From positions 1 through 27,731 of IMG/VR virus record IMGVR_UViG_3300037462_000123: a stretch of DNA of 27,731 bases; one strand, given 5' to 3'. Positions 2,906 through 27,731 of the stretch are shown here, piece by piece. The notes under the pieces are model-generated. The model was not told where the DNA came from and did no database searches. It was given only the letters and a program-made list of their open reading frames with translations. The stretch comes from a virus (Duplodnaviria > Caudoviricetes). How positions within the stretch are numbered: the stretch's first letter is position 1; every line of letters starts with the position of its first letter. Both the position numbers and the translations under genes were made by a program.

Positions 2906-3129
2906 CCGCGCAGCGAGCGGCCGCGGCGTGCTCCGGCAAGGTCGCATTCGACTCGTGGGCGCTGGCCGAAGCCGCATCCAAGCGGCGCCGGAAGAACGCC
3001 GGCATCAGCGTGCGTCCGTACCGCTGCAAGGTGTGCGGGAAGGTGCACCTAGGCGGCGGCGAACCTGTCCGCGACGTGCGAAAGGCGCAGCGGGTGTTTG
3101 CGAAGTACGAAGTCAAGGCGAAGGAGTGA
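2902..3129 (+). CDS. Small zinc-ribbon-like phage protein
   Basis: CSGKVAF...PYRCKVCGKVHL motif; ATGA coupling. Confidence 0.65.
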   Translation: MTAQRAAAACSGKVAFDSWALAEAASKRRRKNAGISVRPYRCKVCGKVHLGGGEPVRDVRKAQRVFAKYEVKAKE

Positions 3130-3132
3130 TCG

Positions 3133-3390
3133 ATGGCAGCGAACCGCTACAAGGTGCAGGCGAAGGTCTGGGCGAAGTGGAGCAAGGCCGCGCGCGCCGT
3201 GTTCAACGAGGTGTATCGCAGCATGCGCAGCTCGCAGTGGGCGTACCTGCATCCGCAGGACGAGCCGAAGAAGCGCAGCTTCTGGCGGACGACCGCCTGG
3301 AACGCGGCGTGGGTTGCCGCGTGCGCGGTCGATGGCGTGACCGTCGACGTCGGCCCGGAACCTCGCACGGCGCCTGCGCGCCGCCGCTGA
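3133..3390 (+). CDS. Hypothetical basic phage protein (85 aa)
   Basis: RBS AAGGAG upstream; fills the operon gap. Confidence 0.6.
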   Translation: MAANRYKVQAKVWAKWSKAARAVFNEVYRSMRSSQWAYLHPQDEPKKRSFWRTTAWNAAWVAACAVDGVTVDVGPEPRTAPARRR

Positions 3391-3408
3391 TCGCAGGACA
3401 ATCTCGGC

Positions 3409-3960
3409 ATGCCGAAGAAGCACAAGCCCAGCAGCAGCCGCCAGCTGACCCCGCGCCAGCAGGCGTTCGTGCGCGAGTACCTGATCGACCTTGTCGCATC
3501 GGACGCGGCGATCCGCGCCGGCTTCTCGGCGAAGAGCGCGAAGGCGATCGCGTTCAACCTGATGCAGCGTCCTGCCATTGCGGCGGCCATCAAGGCCGGG
3601 ATGGAAGCGCGCGAGCGGCGGACCTACATCACGCAGGATCGCGTGCTGCAGGAAATCGCGCGCATCGCGTTCGCCGACGTGCGCAGCCTGTACGACGCAT
3701 CAGGCGCGCTGAAGGCGCCCAAGGATCTGACGCCCGAGGCTGCGGCCGCACTGGCTGCGGTCGACGTGTCCGAGGTTGGCGGCGGCGACGCACCGGTGAT
3801 CATCACGAAGAAGGCGAAGCTGCACGACAAGGTCGCCGCGCTGACACTGGCTGCGCGCCACTTGGGCATGTTGAACGACAAGCTGAAGCTTGACGTCGAG
3901 ACGACGGTGATCGTGAAGGACTACACGGGCCGCAAAGCCGTGGCCGATCCGAGCGCCTGA
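3409..3960 (+). CDS. terS: Terminase small subunit
   Basis: LTPRQQAFVREYLID..ASDAAIRAGFS HTH, ITQDRVLQEIARIAFAD, KLHDKVAAL..LARHLGM; directly precedes the large terminase. Confidence 0.92.
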   Translation: MPKKHKPSSSRQLTPRQQAFVREYLIDLVASDAAIRAGFSAKSAKAIAFNLMQRPAIAAAIKAGMEARERRTYITQDRVLQEIARIAFADVRSLYDASGALKAPKDLTPEAAAALAAVDVSEVGGGDAPVIITKKAKLHDKVAALTLAARHLGMLNDKLKLDVETTVIVKDYTGRKAVADPSA

Positions 3961-10604: not shown

Positions 10605-11443
10605 CGATCGAAACGCTCGACCAAGTCCTGAACGCGCTGGCGAACAACTCGTCGCGCCTGGTCGTCGACAAGAGCAGCATCGGCAACGCTGCGGCGGGGC
10701 AGCTGCTCAGCTTCTGGCGCGCCACCGGCCAGCCGGCGCAGGCCGCCATTCCCGGCACGACCCCGGTGGTTCCGACCAAGGCCACGCTCGGCGCGCCCAA
10801 CTTCAACAACCAGACGGCGCCGGCCACCAGCTACCTCGCGTGGATGGCGCTGCAATCGGCCAACAACGCGCAGACCATCGAGGTGCACGACCGCATCGCG
10901 CAGATGGGCGGCCTGGTCCTGAACGTCACCACGGCGCAGAACATCACCGGGCTCGATCTTGATCCGAGCGCCCTGAACCCGCCCGCCGCGCGGCTCGGCG
11001 CCAGCGACTACAGCGATGTGCAGTGGTTCCTCGAGGTCTACACCGACGGCGGCGCCACCGCATCGAACGCCACCATCAACGTCACGTATGGCGACGGCAC
11101 CAGCAACAACCTGACCGCCGTGGCGGTCGGCGGCACGCTGCGCGCTGGCCGCATGATTCCGCTGACGCCGCTCATCCCGACCGCCGATCAGGGCAAGCGA
11201 ATCCGGCGCATCAACAGCGTCACCCTGAGCGCTTCAACCACGGTCGCTGGAAACTTCGGTTTCACGTGCACCCGGCAGCGCACGTCGCTGCCGCTGCTGC
11301 TGGCCAACAAGACCGAGTCGGGCGACTGGGCCGCGCTCGGGCTGCCCGAAGTGCCGAACGATTCGTGCCTGTGCTACGTGTGCCTGACGTCGACCACGAC
11401 GAGCGGCACGTTGCGCGGTCAGGGCAAGATCGCGCACGGGTAG
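10601..11443 (+). CDS. Putative beta-rich virion protein (280 aa)
   Basis: Thr/Ala/Asn-rich and beta-strand-like; ATGA coupling to the upstream gene. Confidence 0.6.
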   Translation: MTIETLDQVLNALANNSSRLVVDKSSIGNAAAGQLLSFWRATGQPAQAAIPGTTPVVPTKATLGAPNFNNQTAPATSYLAWMALQSANNAQTIEVHDRIAQMGGLVLNVTTAQNITGLDLDPSALNPPAARLGASDYSDVQWFLEVYTDGGATASNATINVTYGDGTSNNLTAVAVGGTLRAGRMIPLTPLIPTADQGKRIRRINSVTLSASTTVAGNFGFTCTRQRTSLPLLLANKTESGDWAALGLPEVPNDSCLCYVCLTSTTTSGTLRGQGKIAHG

Positions 11444-11446
11444 CCG

Positions 11447-12040
11447 ATGTCGCGGGAGTGGCGCGGTACGAACGTCACGCCGCGGCTGCGCGGTGGCAAC
11501 CCGGTATGGGGCGAGAACAGCCCTGCCGGCGCGGTTGCGCGCGATGCCTTCTTCGGATCGGCACCGGCGGGCGTCTCCGGCACCGTCGCGACCACGCTTG
11601 CGGGCGTCACGGCCGCGCTGTCGGGCGTCATCGCGGTGCGCGGGCCGCTCGCCTCGACCCTTGATGGCGTGTCCTGTGCCGCGGCTGGCACCGTGGCGGC
11701 CGCCGGGGTCAGCGGCACCCTGGCCAGCACGTTGGCCGGCGTCACGATGGTCGCGAGCGGCCGCGCGGACGTCCTCGGCAGCGTTGCAAGCACGCTGACC
11801 GGCACGACGATGGTGGCCGCCGGCGCCGTCAACAACCGCGGAACGCTGGCGACCACGCTGGCTGGCGTCTCGGCGGCGATCTCCGGCGCCGTCACCGCGC
11901 CGGCCGTCACCGGCACGATTGGCAGCACCCTGGACGGCGTCGGCTGCTCGGCAGCTGGCTTCGTCGGCGACCCGCCCGCTGGCGGCGTCAACGTCCTGCG
12001 GCGTCCTCTCACGCCGCGCAAGGTCATTCGGCGAATTTGA
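11447..12040 (+). CDS. Repeat-rich fibre-like protein (197 aa)
   Basis: Six imperfect repeats of consensus GxLA(S/T)TLxGVxxxAxG. Confidence 0.6.
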   Translation: MSREWRGTNVTPRLRGGNPVWGENSPAGAVARDAFFGSAPAGVSGTVATTLAGVTAALSGVIAVRGPLASTLDGVSCAAAGTVAAAGVSGTLASTLAGVTMVASGRADVLGSVASTLTGTTMVAAGAVNNRGTLATTLAGVSAAISGAVTAPAVTGTIGSTLDGVGCSAAGFVGDPPAGGVNVLRRPLTPRKVIRRI

Positions 12041-12087
12041 TGCATCATCCCGGCGCGATAGCGCGCGCCTATCACGCGAGGAAGCCC

Positions 12088-16488: not shown

Positions 16489-17346
16489 ATGCCGTCCGTC
16501 GCAGAGCCCGAGGTTCAGATTTCGCGCGCGCCCTTGACGGCGCCCGACGCGGCGACGCCAGCCGAGGCGCTGCAGTCGCAGATCGACACGATCGAACGCG
16601 TCTTCCGCGATCTGCCGCAAGCCGAGATCAGCACCGAACACTGGATCGCCGGCGGCCTGTACTGCCGGCGCATCACCATCCCGCGCGGCGTGTTTGCGGT
16701 CGGCGCGTTGCACCTGAAGGACCACGTCTCCGTGATGGTGTCGGGCCGCATGCGCGTCCTGACTGAGGCCGGGATGGAAGAGCTGGCCGGGCATCACGTC
16801 TGGACGCCCAAGCCCGGCCTTCGGCGGGTCGGCTTCGCCTACGAGGACACCGTGTGGCTGACGGTGCATCGCACCGATGCCGCCACGGTCGAGGCTGCCG
16901 AGGACGAGCTGTTCGCGAACCCGGACGGCCTGTTGTCGCGCCGCACGCAGCGGATCGAGCGTGACCGCACCGACTACCTGCAGATGCTGGCCGACGTCGG
17001 CATCGATCACGACACCGCGCGATCGCAGACCGAGAACACCGACGATCAGCGCGACTTCCCGCCCGGCTACGCGTGGCTGCAGGTGCGCGGCTCGGATCTC
17101 GACGGCTGCGGCCTGTTCACCGCCCGCGACCTGGCGGCCGGAACGACGATCCCGGCGCGCATCGACGGCCAGCGCACGCCGGCCGGACGCTTCACCAATC
17201 ACTCGGCCACGCCGAACGTCGCGCCGATGCTGCGCGCGGACGGCATCGACTTCATCACGCTGCGGCCGATCGCGGCCGGCGAAGAGATCACGGTCGACTA
17301 CCGCGCCGCCGTGCAGTGCGCGCGCATCGCCGGAGGGGCGCAATGA
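16489..17346 (+). CDS. Cupin-like domain fused to a SET-domain methyltransferase
   Basis: N-terminal H...GLY.R...IP.G...VG..H...H cupin pattern; C-terminal GCGLFTARDL, RFTNHSATPN and RPIAAGEEITVDY SET motifs. Confidence 0.85.
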   Translation: MPSVAEPEVQISRAPLTAPDAATPAEALQSQIDTIERVFRDLPQAEISTEHWIAGGLYCRRITIPRGVFAVGALHLKDHVSVMVSGRMRVLTEAGMEELAGHHVWTPKPGLRRVGFAYEDTVWLTVHRTDAATVEAAEDELFANPDGLLSRRTQRIERDRTDYLQMLADVGIDHDTARSQTENTDDQRDFPPGYAWLQVRGSDLDGCGLFTARDLAAGTTIPARIDGQRTPAGRFTNHSATPNVAPMLRADGIDFITLRPIAAGEEITVDYRAAVQCARIAGGAQ

Positions 17347-24355: not shown

Positions 24356-24772
24356 ATGCGAGCACTCTCCCGCGGCTTCACCCTGATCGAGCTGATGATC
24401 GTCGTAGCGATCATCGCCATCCTGGCCGCCATCGCGATCCCGCAGTACCAGAACTACACCGTCCGCGCGCGCGTGTCGGAGGGGCTGAGCCTGGCCGGCT
24501 CGGCAAAGGTCGCGGTCGCCGAGGCGTTTCAAGCGCTGAACGCGTTCCCGACGTCCAACGCCGAGGCCGGGCTGCCGGCGCTCGTAACCGGGCCGGACGT
24601 CACAAGCGTGGCGGTCGGGGCTGATGGCGTCATCACGATCACGTACAACGCCGCGCGCATCCCTGGCGCCGGGACGCTGCTTCTGACGCCGGTCAGCACG
24701 GAAAGCGCGGTCACCTGGACGTGCGGCGGCGGCACGCTGCGCAATCAGTTCCGGCCGGCAACGTGTCGCTGA
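24356..24772 (+). CDS. pilA: Type IVa major pilin (138 aa prepilin)
   Basis: MRALSRG|[36 protein letters not shown] class III signal peptide with Glu5; C-terminal disulfide loop WTC...RPATCR; RBS AGGA. Confidence 0.93.
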
Positions 24773-24912
24773 TCCGCTTTCTCGCCGCGGCCGCGCTGTG
24801 CGGCGCGTACATGCTGGCCGCGCAGGACGCGCAGCCGTGGTTCGTCTCGATCGGCGCGGCGGTGTTGCTGGGGTCGCTGCTGCTGCCGGCGGATGGTGAA
24901 GGGGACTGGTGA
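24763..24912 (+). CDS. Small two-TM membrane protein (49 aa)
   Basis: GTG start overlapping the pilin 3' end; two hydrophobic segments; stop overlaps the next start. Confidence 0.5.
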
Positions 24913-25391
24913 TGATCCTCGAAACAGCCCTCGGCTCCCTGTTCGGCGGCGCGCTGCGACTGGCGCCGGAAGTGCTCAAGTGGCTCGACCGCAAGAGCGA
25001 GCGCGAGCACGAGATCAAGCTGCAAGACCTGTCGCTGCAGGCGTCGCGCGAGAAGGCTGAGCAGCAACTGCGTGCGGCCGAGCAGCAGCGCGGCGCGGTG
25101 CTCGACGCGGGCGCCATGACGGCGCTGGTCGAGTCGATCAAAGCGCAGGCGCAGCCGACCGGCATCCGCTGGGTCGATGCGTTGAACGCGCTGGTCCGTC
25201 CGGGCGTGACGTACTGCTATTTCGGCCTGTACGTGGCCGCGCGGGTGGCGGCGTTCGTGCTCGCGGTACAGGCGGGCGCGGCGCCGCTCGACGTGCTCGC
25301 GAAAACGTGGACCGCCGAGGATCAAGCGATGCTGTCGTCCATCCTCAGCTTCTGGTTCCTCAACCGCACGCTTGAGAAGGCCGGGCGGTAG
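24909..25391 (+). CDS. Holin (3TM / GTA-holin-like family)
   Basis: LGSLFGG..RLAPEVLK.LDRK.ER.HE, VDALNALVRP.VTY and FWFLNRTLEK motifs; precedes the lysozyme. Confidence 0.7.
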   Translation: MMILETALGSLFGGALRLAPEVLKWLDRKSEREHEIKLQDLSLQASREKAEQQLRAAEQQRGAVLDAGAMTALVESIKAQAQPTGIRWVDALNALVRPGVTYCYFGLYVAARVAAFVLAVQAGAAPLDVLAKTWTAEDQAMLSSILSFWFLNRTLEKAGR

Positions 25392-25392
25392 T

Positions 25393-25857
25393 GTGCAGCT
25401 CGGCCCGGTTGTTGAGATCGCGGAACCGTTCATCGCGCGCTGGGAAGGCCTCGCGCGCGTGCGTAACGACGGCCTGATCGTCCCCTACCTGTGCCCGGCC
25501 GGCTTCTGGACGCAGGGCTATGGGCGCCTCGTCAGCGGCCGGGATGCGCCGCCCATCAACCGCGACACCGCGCGCTTCTGGCTGTTCCAAGACATCCTGA
25601 GCCATGCGGCACAGGCGATCGTCGCGTCGCCGTCGCTGGCAATGGAGCCTCCGGCGCGCGTGGCGGTCATCACGTCGTTCGTGTTCAACCTCGGCATCGG
25701 GCGGTATCGATCAAGCACGCTCAAGCGCCGCGTCGACGCCGGGCGCTGGGATGACGTGCCCGCGCAGTTGCGGCGATGGGTGTTTGCGGGGGGCGAAAAG
25801 CTGCCGGGCCTGATCGCACGCCGCGAAGCCGAGGCGGCGATGCTGGCGGACGTCTAG
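25393..25857 (+). CDS. GH24 phage lysozyme (endolysin)
   Basis: WEG...YLCPAG.WT.GYG, SFVFNLG.G....STL.R and RWV.AGG..LPGL..RR.AE motifs; GTG start at 25393. Confidence 0.93.
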   Translation: MQLGPVVEIAEPFIARWEGLARVRNDGLIVPYLCPAGFWTQGYGRLVSGRDAPPINRDTARFWLFQDILSHAAQAIVASPSLAMEPPARVAVITSFVFNLGIGRYRSSTLKRRVDAGRWDDVPAQLRRWVFAGGEKLPGLIARREAEAAMLADV

Positions 25858-26070
25858 ATGGCGAAGATGCTCACGCCCGGCGACGAGGCGGACATGATGC
25901 GGCTCGGCGACCTGTGCACCGCGGCGGCCGAGCAACTGGCCGGCGCTGATCCGGACCCGCGCAAGCACCGGATCGACCTGTACCGGCCGGTGGTGATCGA
26001 CGGGCGGACGCTGTTCGTCAGGGTGAAGTTGACGGTGGCGTTTGTGGGCGGGGCCGCTTCGCAGATCTGA
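25858..26070 (+). CDS. Hypothetical protein (70 aa)
   Basis: Abuts the lysozyme stop; phage-like codon usage; no TM segment or lipobox. Confidence 0.55.
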   Translation: MAKMLTPGDEADMMRLGDLCTAAAEQLAGADPDPRKHRIDLYRPVVIDGRTLFVRVKLTVAFVGGAASQI

Positions 26071-26361
26071 CCCAGGCGCGCGGCTGTGGAGCGCGCGAGC
26101 ACGGCAGCGCGCTGACCTACCGTTCGTCGGCTGGCGTTCGATTCCTGCTGCGCACCTTACAGCACCCTTCACACCGTCTGATCGCACGGCGTGGACGGGA
26201 AACTGCCTAAGGCGTGTGCGATGGCGCAGCGATTTCTGCGCCGCCCCCGCGCCGCCCCAGTCGCGTGTAGACGCAGGCGTGGCGCGGTGTCGGATTCCTC
26301 CCGGCGGGCGGCTTCCCATTCGCTGCTGGCTCGGTCACTTGGCGGCAAGGCTGAGGCAGCG

Positions 26362-26396
26362 GTTATTCCGGCGGCGCGGCATAAATCAAGTTGGGC
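26362..26396 (+). other. attI-like primary cassette integration site
   Basis: GCATAAATCAA-G|TTGGGC: a GTTRRRY core at 26390 with a degenerate inverted L-box upstream and no R''/attC arm; a second GTTATTC at 26362; first junction of the array. Confidence 0.6.
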
Positions 26397-26399
26397 GTC

Positions 26400-26594
26400 T
26401 TACTGCGGGTCATAGTTCACCCGCACCACGGCCATGCAGCCCTGCGACGGGAAACTCTCCGGCACGCACTCCAGCGTGTAGAGAAAGTCCTCGTCAGCGC
26501 CGCCGCCGCTGCCATCGGCGCGCACGGCCACATGCACCGGCCAGTGGCCCGGCATCTTCTCCAGCGCCTCGCGCAGGTCATTCACCGTCATCAT
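26400..26594 (-). CDS. Cassette 1 ORF B, small phage-like protein (64 aa)
   Basis: MTVNDLREALEKMP..WPV.V N-terminus is common in small phage proteins; stop lies just inside the cassette core end. Confidence 0.7.
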   Translation of the reverse strand: MMTVNDLREALEKMPGHWPVHVAVRADGSGGGADEDFLYTLECVPESFPSQGCMAVVRVNYDPQ

Positions 26595-26817
26595 CGGTCC
26601 AGTAGCTCAGGTTCTCGGCCGCCGCGCTTTCCGGCGTCACCGTCAACCAGTCGTCGTCAGCTTCGGGCCAGCTCTCAAGCTCGGCCGCCGCCACCTCGTC
26701 GCCTGCTTCGGTCGCCCGCTTCACCTCGTCGCAAAACCTACGCTCCCATTCGTGGCGTGGGATGCCATGCTCTGGCAGTGTCAGCATCTGTCGCTCCTTG
26801 TCCCAAACCGCTTGCAT
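26578..26817 (-). CDS. Cassette 1 ORF A, small acidic protein (79 aa)
   Basis: Strong RBS AGAAGGAG before ATG 26817; ends PESAAAENLSYWTDD; overlaps ORF B. Confidence 0.75.
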   Translation of the reverse strand: MQAVWDKERQMLTLPEHGIPRHEWERRFCDEVKRATEAGDEVAAAELESWPEADDDWLTVTPESAAAENLSYWTDDDGE

Positions 26818-26846
26818 GCTCACTCCTTCTCGCTTCGGACGCAGCC

Positions 26847-26948
26847 GCCCAACAGTGCGCTCAAGCGGACCCAGGCCGGCGGGCAACGCTCAAGCTTTCC
26901 TTGACAGTTCATCTGCGCCGGCCCGGTCCGCTTAGCTCCGCGTTATGC
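26847..26948 (+). repeat. attC site 1 (102 bp)
   Basis: R'' GCCCAAC-5 nt-L'' GCTCAAGC ... L' GCTTAGC-5 nt-R' GTTATGC; extra C in L''; stem GGACC.AGGCCGGCG / CGCCGGCC.GGTCC. Confidence 0.92.
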
Positions 26949-27259
26949 CGCAGTTGTGCGTTCTCGGCGCGGAGGCGTTCCAGTTCTTCCGCTGTCATTG
27001 GAAACCACACTTCCAAATCGCTGTTCTCGCGCCAGTGCCGCCCAGTCTTTCGGTCAATCTCATCGTGCGCCCAGCCTTCCAGCAACAATCGCTCGCACTC
27101 GGCCCAATGGTCTTCGTCCAGCAGTTCGCCAAGCCGTGCGCCAAGTTTCTGCAACGGGTGGCCCATCGGTGGCAATTCCGGCAATCCTTCATCGGCTCCC
27201 ATTTCGTTCATCCAGTCCTCGTAGCTGTATCGGTCGTTAGGGTCTGCAAACGGTCGCAT
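26909..27259 (-). CDS. Cassette 2 ORF, phage-like hypothetical protein (116 aa)
   Basis: RBS GAGG before ATG 27259; coiled-coil end EELERLRAENAQLR; reads through into attC1 (HNAELSGPGRRR*). Confidence 0.75.
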   Translation of the reverse strand: MRPFADPNDRYSYEDWMNEMGADEGLPELPPMGHPLQKLGARLGELLDEDHWAECERLLLEGWAHDEIDRKTGRHWRENSDLEVWFPMTAEELERLRAENAQLRHNAELSGPGRRR

Positions 27260-27279
27260 GTCATTTCCTCGTGTCAGCG

Positions 27280-27339
27280 GCATAACAATTCATTCAAGCC
27301 GACGCCGCTTCGCGGCGCGGCTTAACTCAGGCGTTAGAT
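27280..27339 (+). repeat. attC site 2 (60 bp, aadA-family-like)
   Basis: GCATAAC AATTC ATTCAAGC CGACGCCGCTTCGCGGCGCG GCTTAAC TCAGGC GTTAGAT. Confidence 0.97.
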
Positions 27340-27526
27340 TGCAGAGAAGAACGCGCGCACGAGGCCGGCTTCCTGCCTGCTTCCCGTCCCCGCGTGGGCT
27401 CCAGTAGCGCTGTAGGAGTCGAGTGCTGCAAGGCCCGCTCTCGCGCGCGGTCCCCGTCTATCCGTGAGTGTTCGCATCGGGAGTCTCACCCTAGCGGCCG
27501 GTTCTGCGCACGCGCTCATCGCTGCA

Positions 27527-27613
27527 ATCTAACCCTGCGTTGGAGCGGACGGCCCACGGCCGTCCTTGGTTGTTGAAGTGTTGAGCGGGCCGCCGCTCAA
27601 CTCCACGTTAGGC
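27527..27613 (+). repeat. attC site 3 (87 bp)
   Basis: R'' ATCTAAC-5 nt-L'' GTTGGAGC ... L' GCTCAAC-5 nt-R' GTTAGGC; one extra base in L''; stem GG.CGGCCC / GGGCCGCC. Confidence 0.9.
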
Positions 27614-27617
27614 CCCA

Positions 27618-27731
27618 TCAATCCCAACCGCGCTCAGGCAGCGGGCCTCTGGCATAGGCGGCTTCGTTCTGCCGTATCTCTTCCAAGTGCTTGAGCCAAT
27701 CCGTGTCGCTCCAACCGACCGGTGTCGGTGG
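27618..27731 (-). CDS. Cassette 4 ORF, 3' end only
   Basis: Manual translation PPTPVGWSDTDWLKHLEEIRQNEAAYARGPLPERGWD*; stop lies just inside the GTTAGGC core. Confidence 0.6.
   Translation of the reverse strand, partial: PPTPVGWSDTDWLKHLEEIRQNEAAYARGPLPERGWD

Follow-up and report, generated by a model that had tools for sequence, protein, structure and literature searches.

Does a phage genome that carries integron-type attC sites exchange its genes as cassettes, and which recombinase would serve it? We address this question for the right-hand end of a 27,731-bp stretch of DNA (the window), which is a whole IMG/VR record, linear and ~76% complete. A first-pass annotation, made from the letters alone, placed here a phage-borne cassette array loaded with phage-like genes. 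We conclude, with a probability of roughly 0.7, that the array consists of integron-type attC cassettes with inverted genes, that it is very likely a phage array, that its cassettes are likely exchanged via a host integron integrase (IntI), and that the genes would be read from a leftward early operon.

attC sites and cassettes of the window

We identified attC sites with our own scanner for the R''-L''-L'-R' arrangement rather than with IntegronFinder or HattCI. In the 27,731-bp window it matched only three sites, all on the + strand: attC1 (102 bp, 26847-26948) and attC2 (60 bp, 27280-27339), supported by L-box pairing, and attC3 (87 bp, 27527-27613), for which the fold includes a competing internal hairpin. 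These are exactly the three sites that had been annotated, with the correct spacing (R''-5-L''(8)...L'(7)-5/6-R'), and they stand far above shuffled controls (0.14 matches per window in 100 shuffles, maximum 2; 0.004 sites per shuffle of the array region in 2000 shuffles, never more than one). Read on the + strand, the L boxes form 7/7, 6/7 and 7/7 pairs in attC1, attC2 and attC3, with an extra base at position 4 of L''; read in reverse they form at best 4, 4 and 5 pairs. Because the L boxes and the extra base fit the + reading only, the + strand is the canonical top strand. The left end of each cassette matches the flank of its own R'' over 8, 10 and 12 bases and that of the other sites over 3-5, R'' and R' are mismatched within every assembled site, and the longest run common to the sites is 6-7 bases; the earlier description was right in each of these respects, including the mutual dissimilarity of the sites. 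With three attC sites within 770 bp, the array is a cluster of the CALIN kind (two or more sites).

In the folds of attC1 and attC2 the L boxes are paired, as are the R boxes once the site is closed on its own left end. In the minimum-energy fold of attC3, L' pairs with an internal copy of the L'' box and not with L'' itself; thus, attC3 may recombine poorly. Compared by eye, attC2 is identical at 56/60 positions to attC-aadA7 (Table S3 of PMC9892861), the standard positive control in that study, and it shares 53-58 of 60 positions with eight attC sites of the Aquilutibacter rugosus integron. Among GenBank phages the array has only two matches, both to class 1 integron attC.

Cassette 1 (552 bp, 26391..26942), delimited by attC anatomy, begins at 26390 behind other DNA in record 18 of run X3 and carries two inverted ORFs. 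ORF B (64 aa, 26400..26594, - strand) has a weak DUF6225 match under the cut-off (E 7.6e-5) and 80 relatives, with no matches in GenBank phages. ORF A (79 aa, 26578..26817, - strand) has a weak phrog_4659 match (E 2.6e-4) and 11 relatives. Cassette 2 (391 bp, 26943..27333) recurs in phage contig L128, and relatives of it are found in prophage L125 and host integron L126. Its ORF (26909..27259, - strand) is of no known family and has 88 relatives. In place it encodes 116 aa, reading through the crossover to a stop within attC1; were the cassette closed on its own attC, it would encode 107 aa. The ESM Atlas returned one cluster at 0.76 for this protein, which was uninformative. Cassette 3 (274 bp, 27334..27607) has no convincing ORF and a long terminal inverted repeat, and a variant with the same attC is present in phage L058. 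The left end of cassette 4 (27608..27731, - strand) contains 37 codons from the 3' end of an inverted ORF (stop at 27618-27620), and an identical 127 bp end L058, where another cassette precedes them.

The stretch 27334-27533 of cassette 3 has a fold z of -3.1 on the - strand, and 48 bp of it are unchanged in L058, with a diverged middle. Cassette 3 may carry a structured RNA or regulatory element with no Rfam match; Rfam gave no matches in the window up to E 1.

In the window's cassettes the ORFs begin 27-36 bases inside R'' and are preceded by a ribosome-site motif; they end near or through the left crossover. Relatives of the cassette 2 protein share a common core and diverge right after the residues encoded backwards by the crossover box: L(R/Q)[HP]N, the box read in reverse, occurs in 39 of 88 relatives, which continue from there into 31 different tails. 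Such a pattern is what read-through into various left neighbours would produce. The description of the cargo as phage-like is only partly borne out. It is weak within the window (one weak PHROG match, one DUF6225 match below cut-off, one ORF of no family and one cassette lacking an ORF), but other cassettes of the same pool carry phage families, including DNA methyltransferases and a DHH phosphoesterase.

Phage neighbourhood and entry site

The window phage is P22-like. All on the + strand are genes for a replication initiator, terminase, P22-type portal, scaffold, coat, head-tail and ejection proteins, as are a pilin gene, a holin and a lysozyme. The type IV pilin gene (24356-24772, +; PF00114 E 1e-19, N-methyl motif) lies between holin and lysozyme, is also present in L058 and one X3 contig at ~80% DNA identity, and is possibly a superinfection-exclusion or receptor-masking gene. 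Among the virion genes, an ORF at 16489-17346 (+) combines a C-terminal SET-domain match (PF00856 E 5e-10) with N-terminal tail-fibre-like PHROG matches. The lysis module has been swapped between the window (24909-25857) and L058 (9029-10000), with the pilin gene and a 70-aa ORF common to both, and in X2 and X3 contigs 1018 other letters likewise stand in its place.

The endolysin, a phage lysozyme (25393..25857, +; PF00959 E 5e-23, phrog_7 E 3e-32), lies near the end of the rightward late operon. The array was said to come right after the lysis genes. The lysozyme does precede it, but the 70-aa ORF (25858..26070, +) and ~320 bp of non-coding DNA intervene. The 70-aa ORF is the last rightward gene, with relatives 80-89% identical in L058-L060; it was not found in 300 genomes of the Aquilutibacter family. 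In L059 and L060, a stretch resembling a tRNA 3' end (by eye) and a tyrosine integrase gene in leftward orientation (phrog_1) come after it, beyond which these two 38-kb relatives have leftward early genes. Since relatives carry attP-int-xis and leftward early genes where the window has the array, the array occupies the att/early-left position and its genes point in the early direction. Inside cassette 4, 118 bp past attC3, the contig stops, leaving the right flank unseen. The array is very likely phage-borne, as had been claimed. Two other genes were tried as locus finders and set aside: the relatives found with the 160-aa gene before the lysozyme were all distant (26 viral and 31 genome loci, each with at most one scanner match), and a 386-aa gene found five distant viral loci, all without an array.

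The non-coding platform upstream of the array (26071..26389) has no sigma-70 promoter match, no tRNA and an unremarkable fold (z -0.45); sigma-70 promoters gave no matches anywhere in 25850-27731. Its first 76 bp are identical in L058. An X2 contig matches 25857-26395 and an X3 contig 25857-26392, both at 98-99%, and each then continues into other DNA; both have a different lysis region upstream. Thus, three different first cassettes (in X1, X2 and X3) follow the same G|TT at 26390|26391, within the attI-like entry site (26362..26396, +), and the first cassettes change within 0-3 bases after its GTT. The loose end of the X2 first cassette, read backwards, resembles the C-terminus of the ctTUS972 methyltransferase (Table S4 of PMC9892861; by eye over 30 bases).

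The entry site is not a full attC, as there is no AAC in the preceding 186 bp. Its end, TAAATCAAG|TT, resembles TAAATGTAG|TT at the Aquilutibacter host attI, a short likeness seen by eye, and the site also resembles the 3' half of the 60-bp attC. The attI-like junction of the first-pass annotation stands as a G|TT used by three first cassettes, with a likeness to host attI that is short. The site is reused, and it may represent an attI, a hot spot for attG insertion or what is left of an attC. The exact junction pattern had no matches in IMG/VR. A looser pattern gave 22 GTDB genome loci, none with IntI alongside, which we read as chance, and an 11-base attI motif was as frequent over 301 genomes as its reversed control and so uninformative. 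In other phage records, the array heads of G023 and G027 resemble the L126 host attI (by eye), and attI-like palindromic motifs are common to the array heads of G023 and G027 and to those of G009 and G026.

Gene orientation, cassette exchange and the source of the integrase

All cassette ORFs of the window are on the - strand and are thus inverted relative to their attC sites. In bacterial integrons the cassette gene runs the opposite way. This inversion, overlooked by the first-pass annotation, sets the array apart. We scanned IMG/VR with the core of the 60-bp attC and found 29 loci, many of them arrays of up to 9 sites among phage genes. Orientation was called with our own ORF rule; nine of the 36 records examined gave no countable cassette, and records G103, G200 and G277 support no claim. 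Within a sample that is non-random (chosen by one attC motif and by cassette 2 relatives) and in which cassettes of one array are not independent, 23 records without detected IntI hold 100 cassettes, 82 inverted, 9 forward, 2 tied and 7 uncalled, and four records with IntI hold 36 cassettes, 3 inverted and 27 forward. By record, cassettes are mostly inverted in 21/23 without IntI (mostly forward in 2/23) versus 0/4 with IntI; L126 is split 2:2. The inverted ORF starts 18-36 nt inside the R'' end in 68 of the 82 inverted cassettes. Phage genes lie on both sides of the array in G005, G016, G017, G018 (which has terminal repeats and is 100% complete) and L128, and such flanked arrays are usually at the far end of a recombination/replication operon, facing the late genes. 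In G021 (49048-49947) and G023 (10857-12072), attC sites are present on both strands and face each other within one array.

Related phages differ at this locus by whole cassettes, in line with the comparison that had been proposed: X2, X3 and L058 each have other content. In the array of L058, cassette 3 and the attC it has in the window are separated from the identical 127 bp of cassette 4 by another inverted cassette, which is frameshifted and matches phrog_24928. Cassette 2 with its right-hand attC is present in L128 behind a different left neighbour. A match to an X3 contig starts at 26390 behind other DNA, and one to an X2 contig starts at 27332. Relative to G|TT, the edges of shared blocks lie at -1 to +6 between the window and L058 and at -1 to +10 between G008 and G020, and blocks end at +2 between the window and L128 and at +5 between G014 and G017; other blocks shared between arrays end inside a gene or early in an attC. 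As several shared blocks start at G|TT and run through the right-hand attC, the moving unit is a standard cassette in which only the gene is reversed. Complementarity of left ends to their own sites averages 6.4 of 9 bases versus 4.2 for non-own pairs (100 and 468 pairs). Some arrays are frozen, as L058 has lost most of the platform by deletion and has a mutated cassette 3 left core, and the sites of L125 are eroded. These comparisons are bounded in that run X1 may be the window's own source and contains L058-like DNA, and X2 and X3 come from one study.

The run contigs showed no excised cassette circles. A joint in run X4 that leads back 391 bases, the length of cassette 2, was considered as a circle and rejected (138 other letters, four attC-side differences); it is read as another cassette ahead of cassette 2. 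In X1, the depth of the contig with cassette 4 is 75.7, close to the 53.7 of the window and the 21.9 of an L058-like contig added together, which suggests an assembly branch at cassette 4 (depth here is not copy number); the cassette 4 contig extends 500 bases beyond the window. Exact patterns for cassette 4 and the platform matched only the L058 record, and cassette 4 variants were missed because the pattern covered a position that varies in run X5. Run X5 gives cover for cassettes 1, 2 and 4, with several variants of cassette 4, but not for the phage platform (25800-26384 uncovered), a lack of cover that proves nothing.

IntI cuts the folded bottom strand at AAC, which yields G|TT joints and places all attC sites in one direction (PMC5027507). 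The earlier reading of the array as the footprint of circular cassettes integrated by IntI is sound insofar as the cassettes are of the integron type and break at G|TT; the enzyme itself would be IntI. We identified no tyrosine recombinase in the window or the L058 record (no IntI in 27.7 kb). Upstream of the entry site are the lysozyme, the 70-aa ORF and non-coding DNA, with no PF00589 or TIGR02249 match. IntI scored over the cut-off in 5 of 28 records, none of these five with an inverted array, and none was found in the 34,000 of 34,630 bp examined of the P22-like genome MW202573. With no IntI in the part of the genome available, the window phage has the sites and not the whole machinery. 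The claim that the phage uses integron machinery for shuffling is thus supported in part, by the whole-cassette differences at G|TT. The array is probably an intI-less CALIN in this 27.7 kb, in a contig ending shortly after attC3.

A host IntI acting in trans would be the simplest source of the enzyme. All three bacterial genomes with a cassette 2 match have IntI over the cut-off, one with an internal stop. L126, the integron of a Halothiobacillus MAG with an intact intI, has a forward first cassette, two inverted cassettes in positions 2-3 (2961-3778) and then forward cassettes again; one of the inverted pair is 94% like the cassette 2 protein and the other matches phrog_1273. Aquilutibacter rugosus has the cassette 2 gene in a prophage (L125) and, elsewhere, an integron with forward cassettes and an intI interrupted by one internal stop. 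In this prophage, at tRNA-Pro, the gene lies between two attC remnants (L125 7700-8400), each with a similar GT-rich stretch in place of its 3' half.

We propose that cassettes are gained, lost and reordered at the attI-like entry site and the attC sites by a host integron integrase, that a leftward early promoter would read the cassette genes, and that selection may keep cassettes with genes facing the leftward early direction. Should the array be transcribed leftward, the entry point for new cassettes would be its promoter-distal end, in the mirror image of a bacterial integron. We extend this only tentatively, as a view we hold somewhat short of even odds, to many unrelated phages, which may maintain a parasitic mirror-image integron with its own attI-type site and a pool of reversed-gene cassettes, use host IntI and trade with host integrons.

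The array could instead belong to an autonomous phage integron, with a phage gene for IntI or for a different site-specific recombinase in the part of the genome not covered by the contig. The contig lacks ~24% of the genome, at the end that in relatives houses int and early genes, yet we consider this unlikely: integrons keep IntI upstream of the entry site, where there is none, and IntI is absent from five IMG/VR records with arrays or inverted cassettes that are 94-100% complete (G018, G005, G021, G013 and G026), including G018, which has no tyrosine recombinase at all, and G005, which has a serine-type integrase. Quite improbable is an ancient capture of the array with exchange now by homologous recombination (Red/RecT-type) between hairpins kept as RNA signals, as in PeSL cassettes. 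In its favour, several phages have annealing/exonuclease genes immediately upstream of their arrays, attC sites of the 60-bp type are frequent enough to serve as repeats, and some sites are eroded. However, attC1-3 share at most seven consecutive bases, the entry site is no attC and first cassettes nevertheless change immediately after its GTT, complementarity of own ends has been kept, and inverted cassettes reach a host integron.

Finally, the array could belong to the host chromosome, as an integron next to which a prophage has integrated, or it could result from a chimeric join. It begins where relatives have an attachment site, its right flank is out of sight, attC2 is of a common bacterial type, and a prophage would likewise give even depth. 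We regard this as very improbable, given that no intI adjoins the entry site and that the genes are inverted, compared with 27/36 forward in IntI-bearing records. In addition, phages whose lysis module differs have this platform ahead of other cassettes, a single X1 contig spans 26117-26870, the GC content of the cassettes is 0.58-0.66 versus 0.685 for the phage, and the layout recurs in MW202573, which is a P22-like genome, complete and circular.

If exchange via host IntI is correct, site-specific cassette exchange joins the sources of phage mosaicism, in an early region with methyltransferases and other host-interaction genes. Integrons, reported as stores of anti-phage genes, would also be a two-way route between phage and host, with L126 showing phage-type inverted cassettes in a host integron. 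De novo cassette formation has been called largely unknown (PMC5371416), and a mirror-image pool constrains any model of it; if whole genes are placed neatly in one direction or the other according to whether the cassette serves a phage or a bacterium, this would give a handle on cassette making. attC polarity is a simple way to find such arrays and to list phage accessory genes.

Comparison with known systems

The array works like an integron cassette array and is not a complete integron in the part available. Like class 1 and sedentary chromosomal integrons of bacteria, it has attC anatomy, the G|TT crossover, cassettes composed of a body and a right-hand attC, shared attC types and an attI-like first junction. 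It differs from them in the lack of intI or Pc in the available part, in heterogeneous attC sites, in inverted genes with the ribosome site and start next to R'', and in cargo of the phage early-gene type. Where a complete integron has intI beside attI and a Pc ahead of forward genes, the window has no intI, no sigma-70 matches and ORFs on the - strand. Nor does it resemble a sedentary chromosomal integron of the host, as the sites are dissimilar, the genes inverted and the left-hand genes those of a phage; the right flank is unseen.

IntI inserts cassettes at double-stranded GWT sites away from the integron (attG, SALINs and small CALINs; bioRxiv 10.1101/2022.09.11.507474). By analogy, attG insertion could found such an array, and the site at 26390 may be an attG hot spot. 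The window differs from attG insertion as described there in that related phages have different cassettes at one and the same site, with a consistently inverted cargo. Top-strand recombination, with insertion in the opposite orientation (PMC5027507), also leaves a gene facing the other way; it inverts gene and attC together, whereas in the window the attC keeps the canonical direction and only the gene is reversed. The PeSL cassettes of T4-type phages (PMC2839356) are alike in that accessory genes bounded by stem-loops are shuffled in a variable genome region. PeSLs are similar promoter-terminator repeats that recombine together, whereas the window has dissimilar attC sites with a fixed crossover and no promoter matches, and not repeated, similar promoter-stem-loop units.

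The closest known system is that of the phage CALINs (Qi et al. 2023, PMC9892861), although the first-pass annotation knew of no well-characterised phage system of this kind: that study reported 17 CALINs in 10,705 phage genomes, and IntI1 recombined five of the six phage attC sites tested. They share with the window attC clusters without intI in phages and a cargo of small genes and DNA methyltransferases. The genes of the TJE1 array of that study are forward, unlike those of the window. In ctTUS972 (MW202573) the attC-like sites are opposite to the early genes and converge on the lysis genes; our strict scanner missed these sites, and a looser threshold, which also gives stray matches, found three clear ones. 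We infer that the inverted type is present in those data. The available text of PMC9892861 does not state gene inversion, for ctTUS972 included, nor does it describe cassette turnover between related phages or, in a virulent or uncultured phage lacking intI, an entry site of the attI kind, and it suggests off-target or illegitimate recombination as the entry route. Our literature search, in which subscription journals were thinly covered, found no published description of the inverted layout. Phage attC arrays themselves are already published; what sets this one apart is that its genes are inverted and its entry site is used repeatedly.
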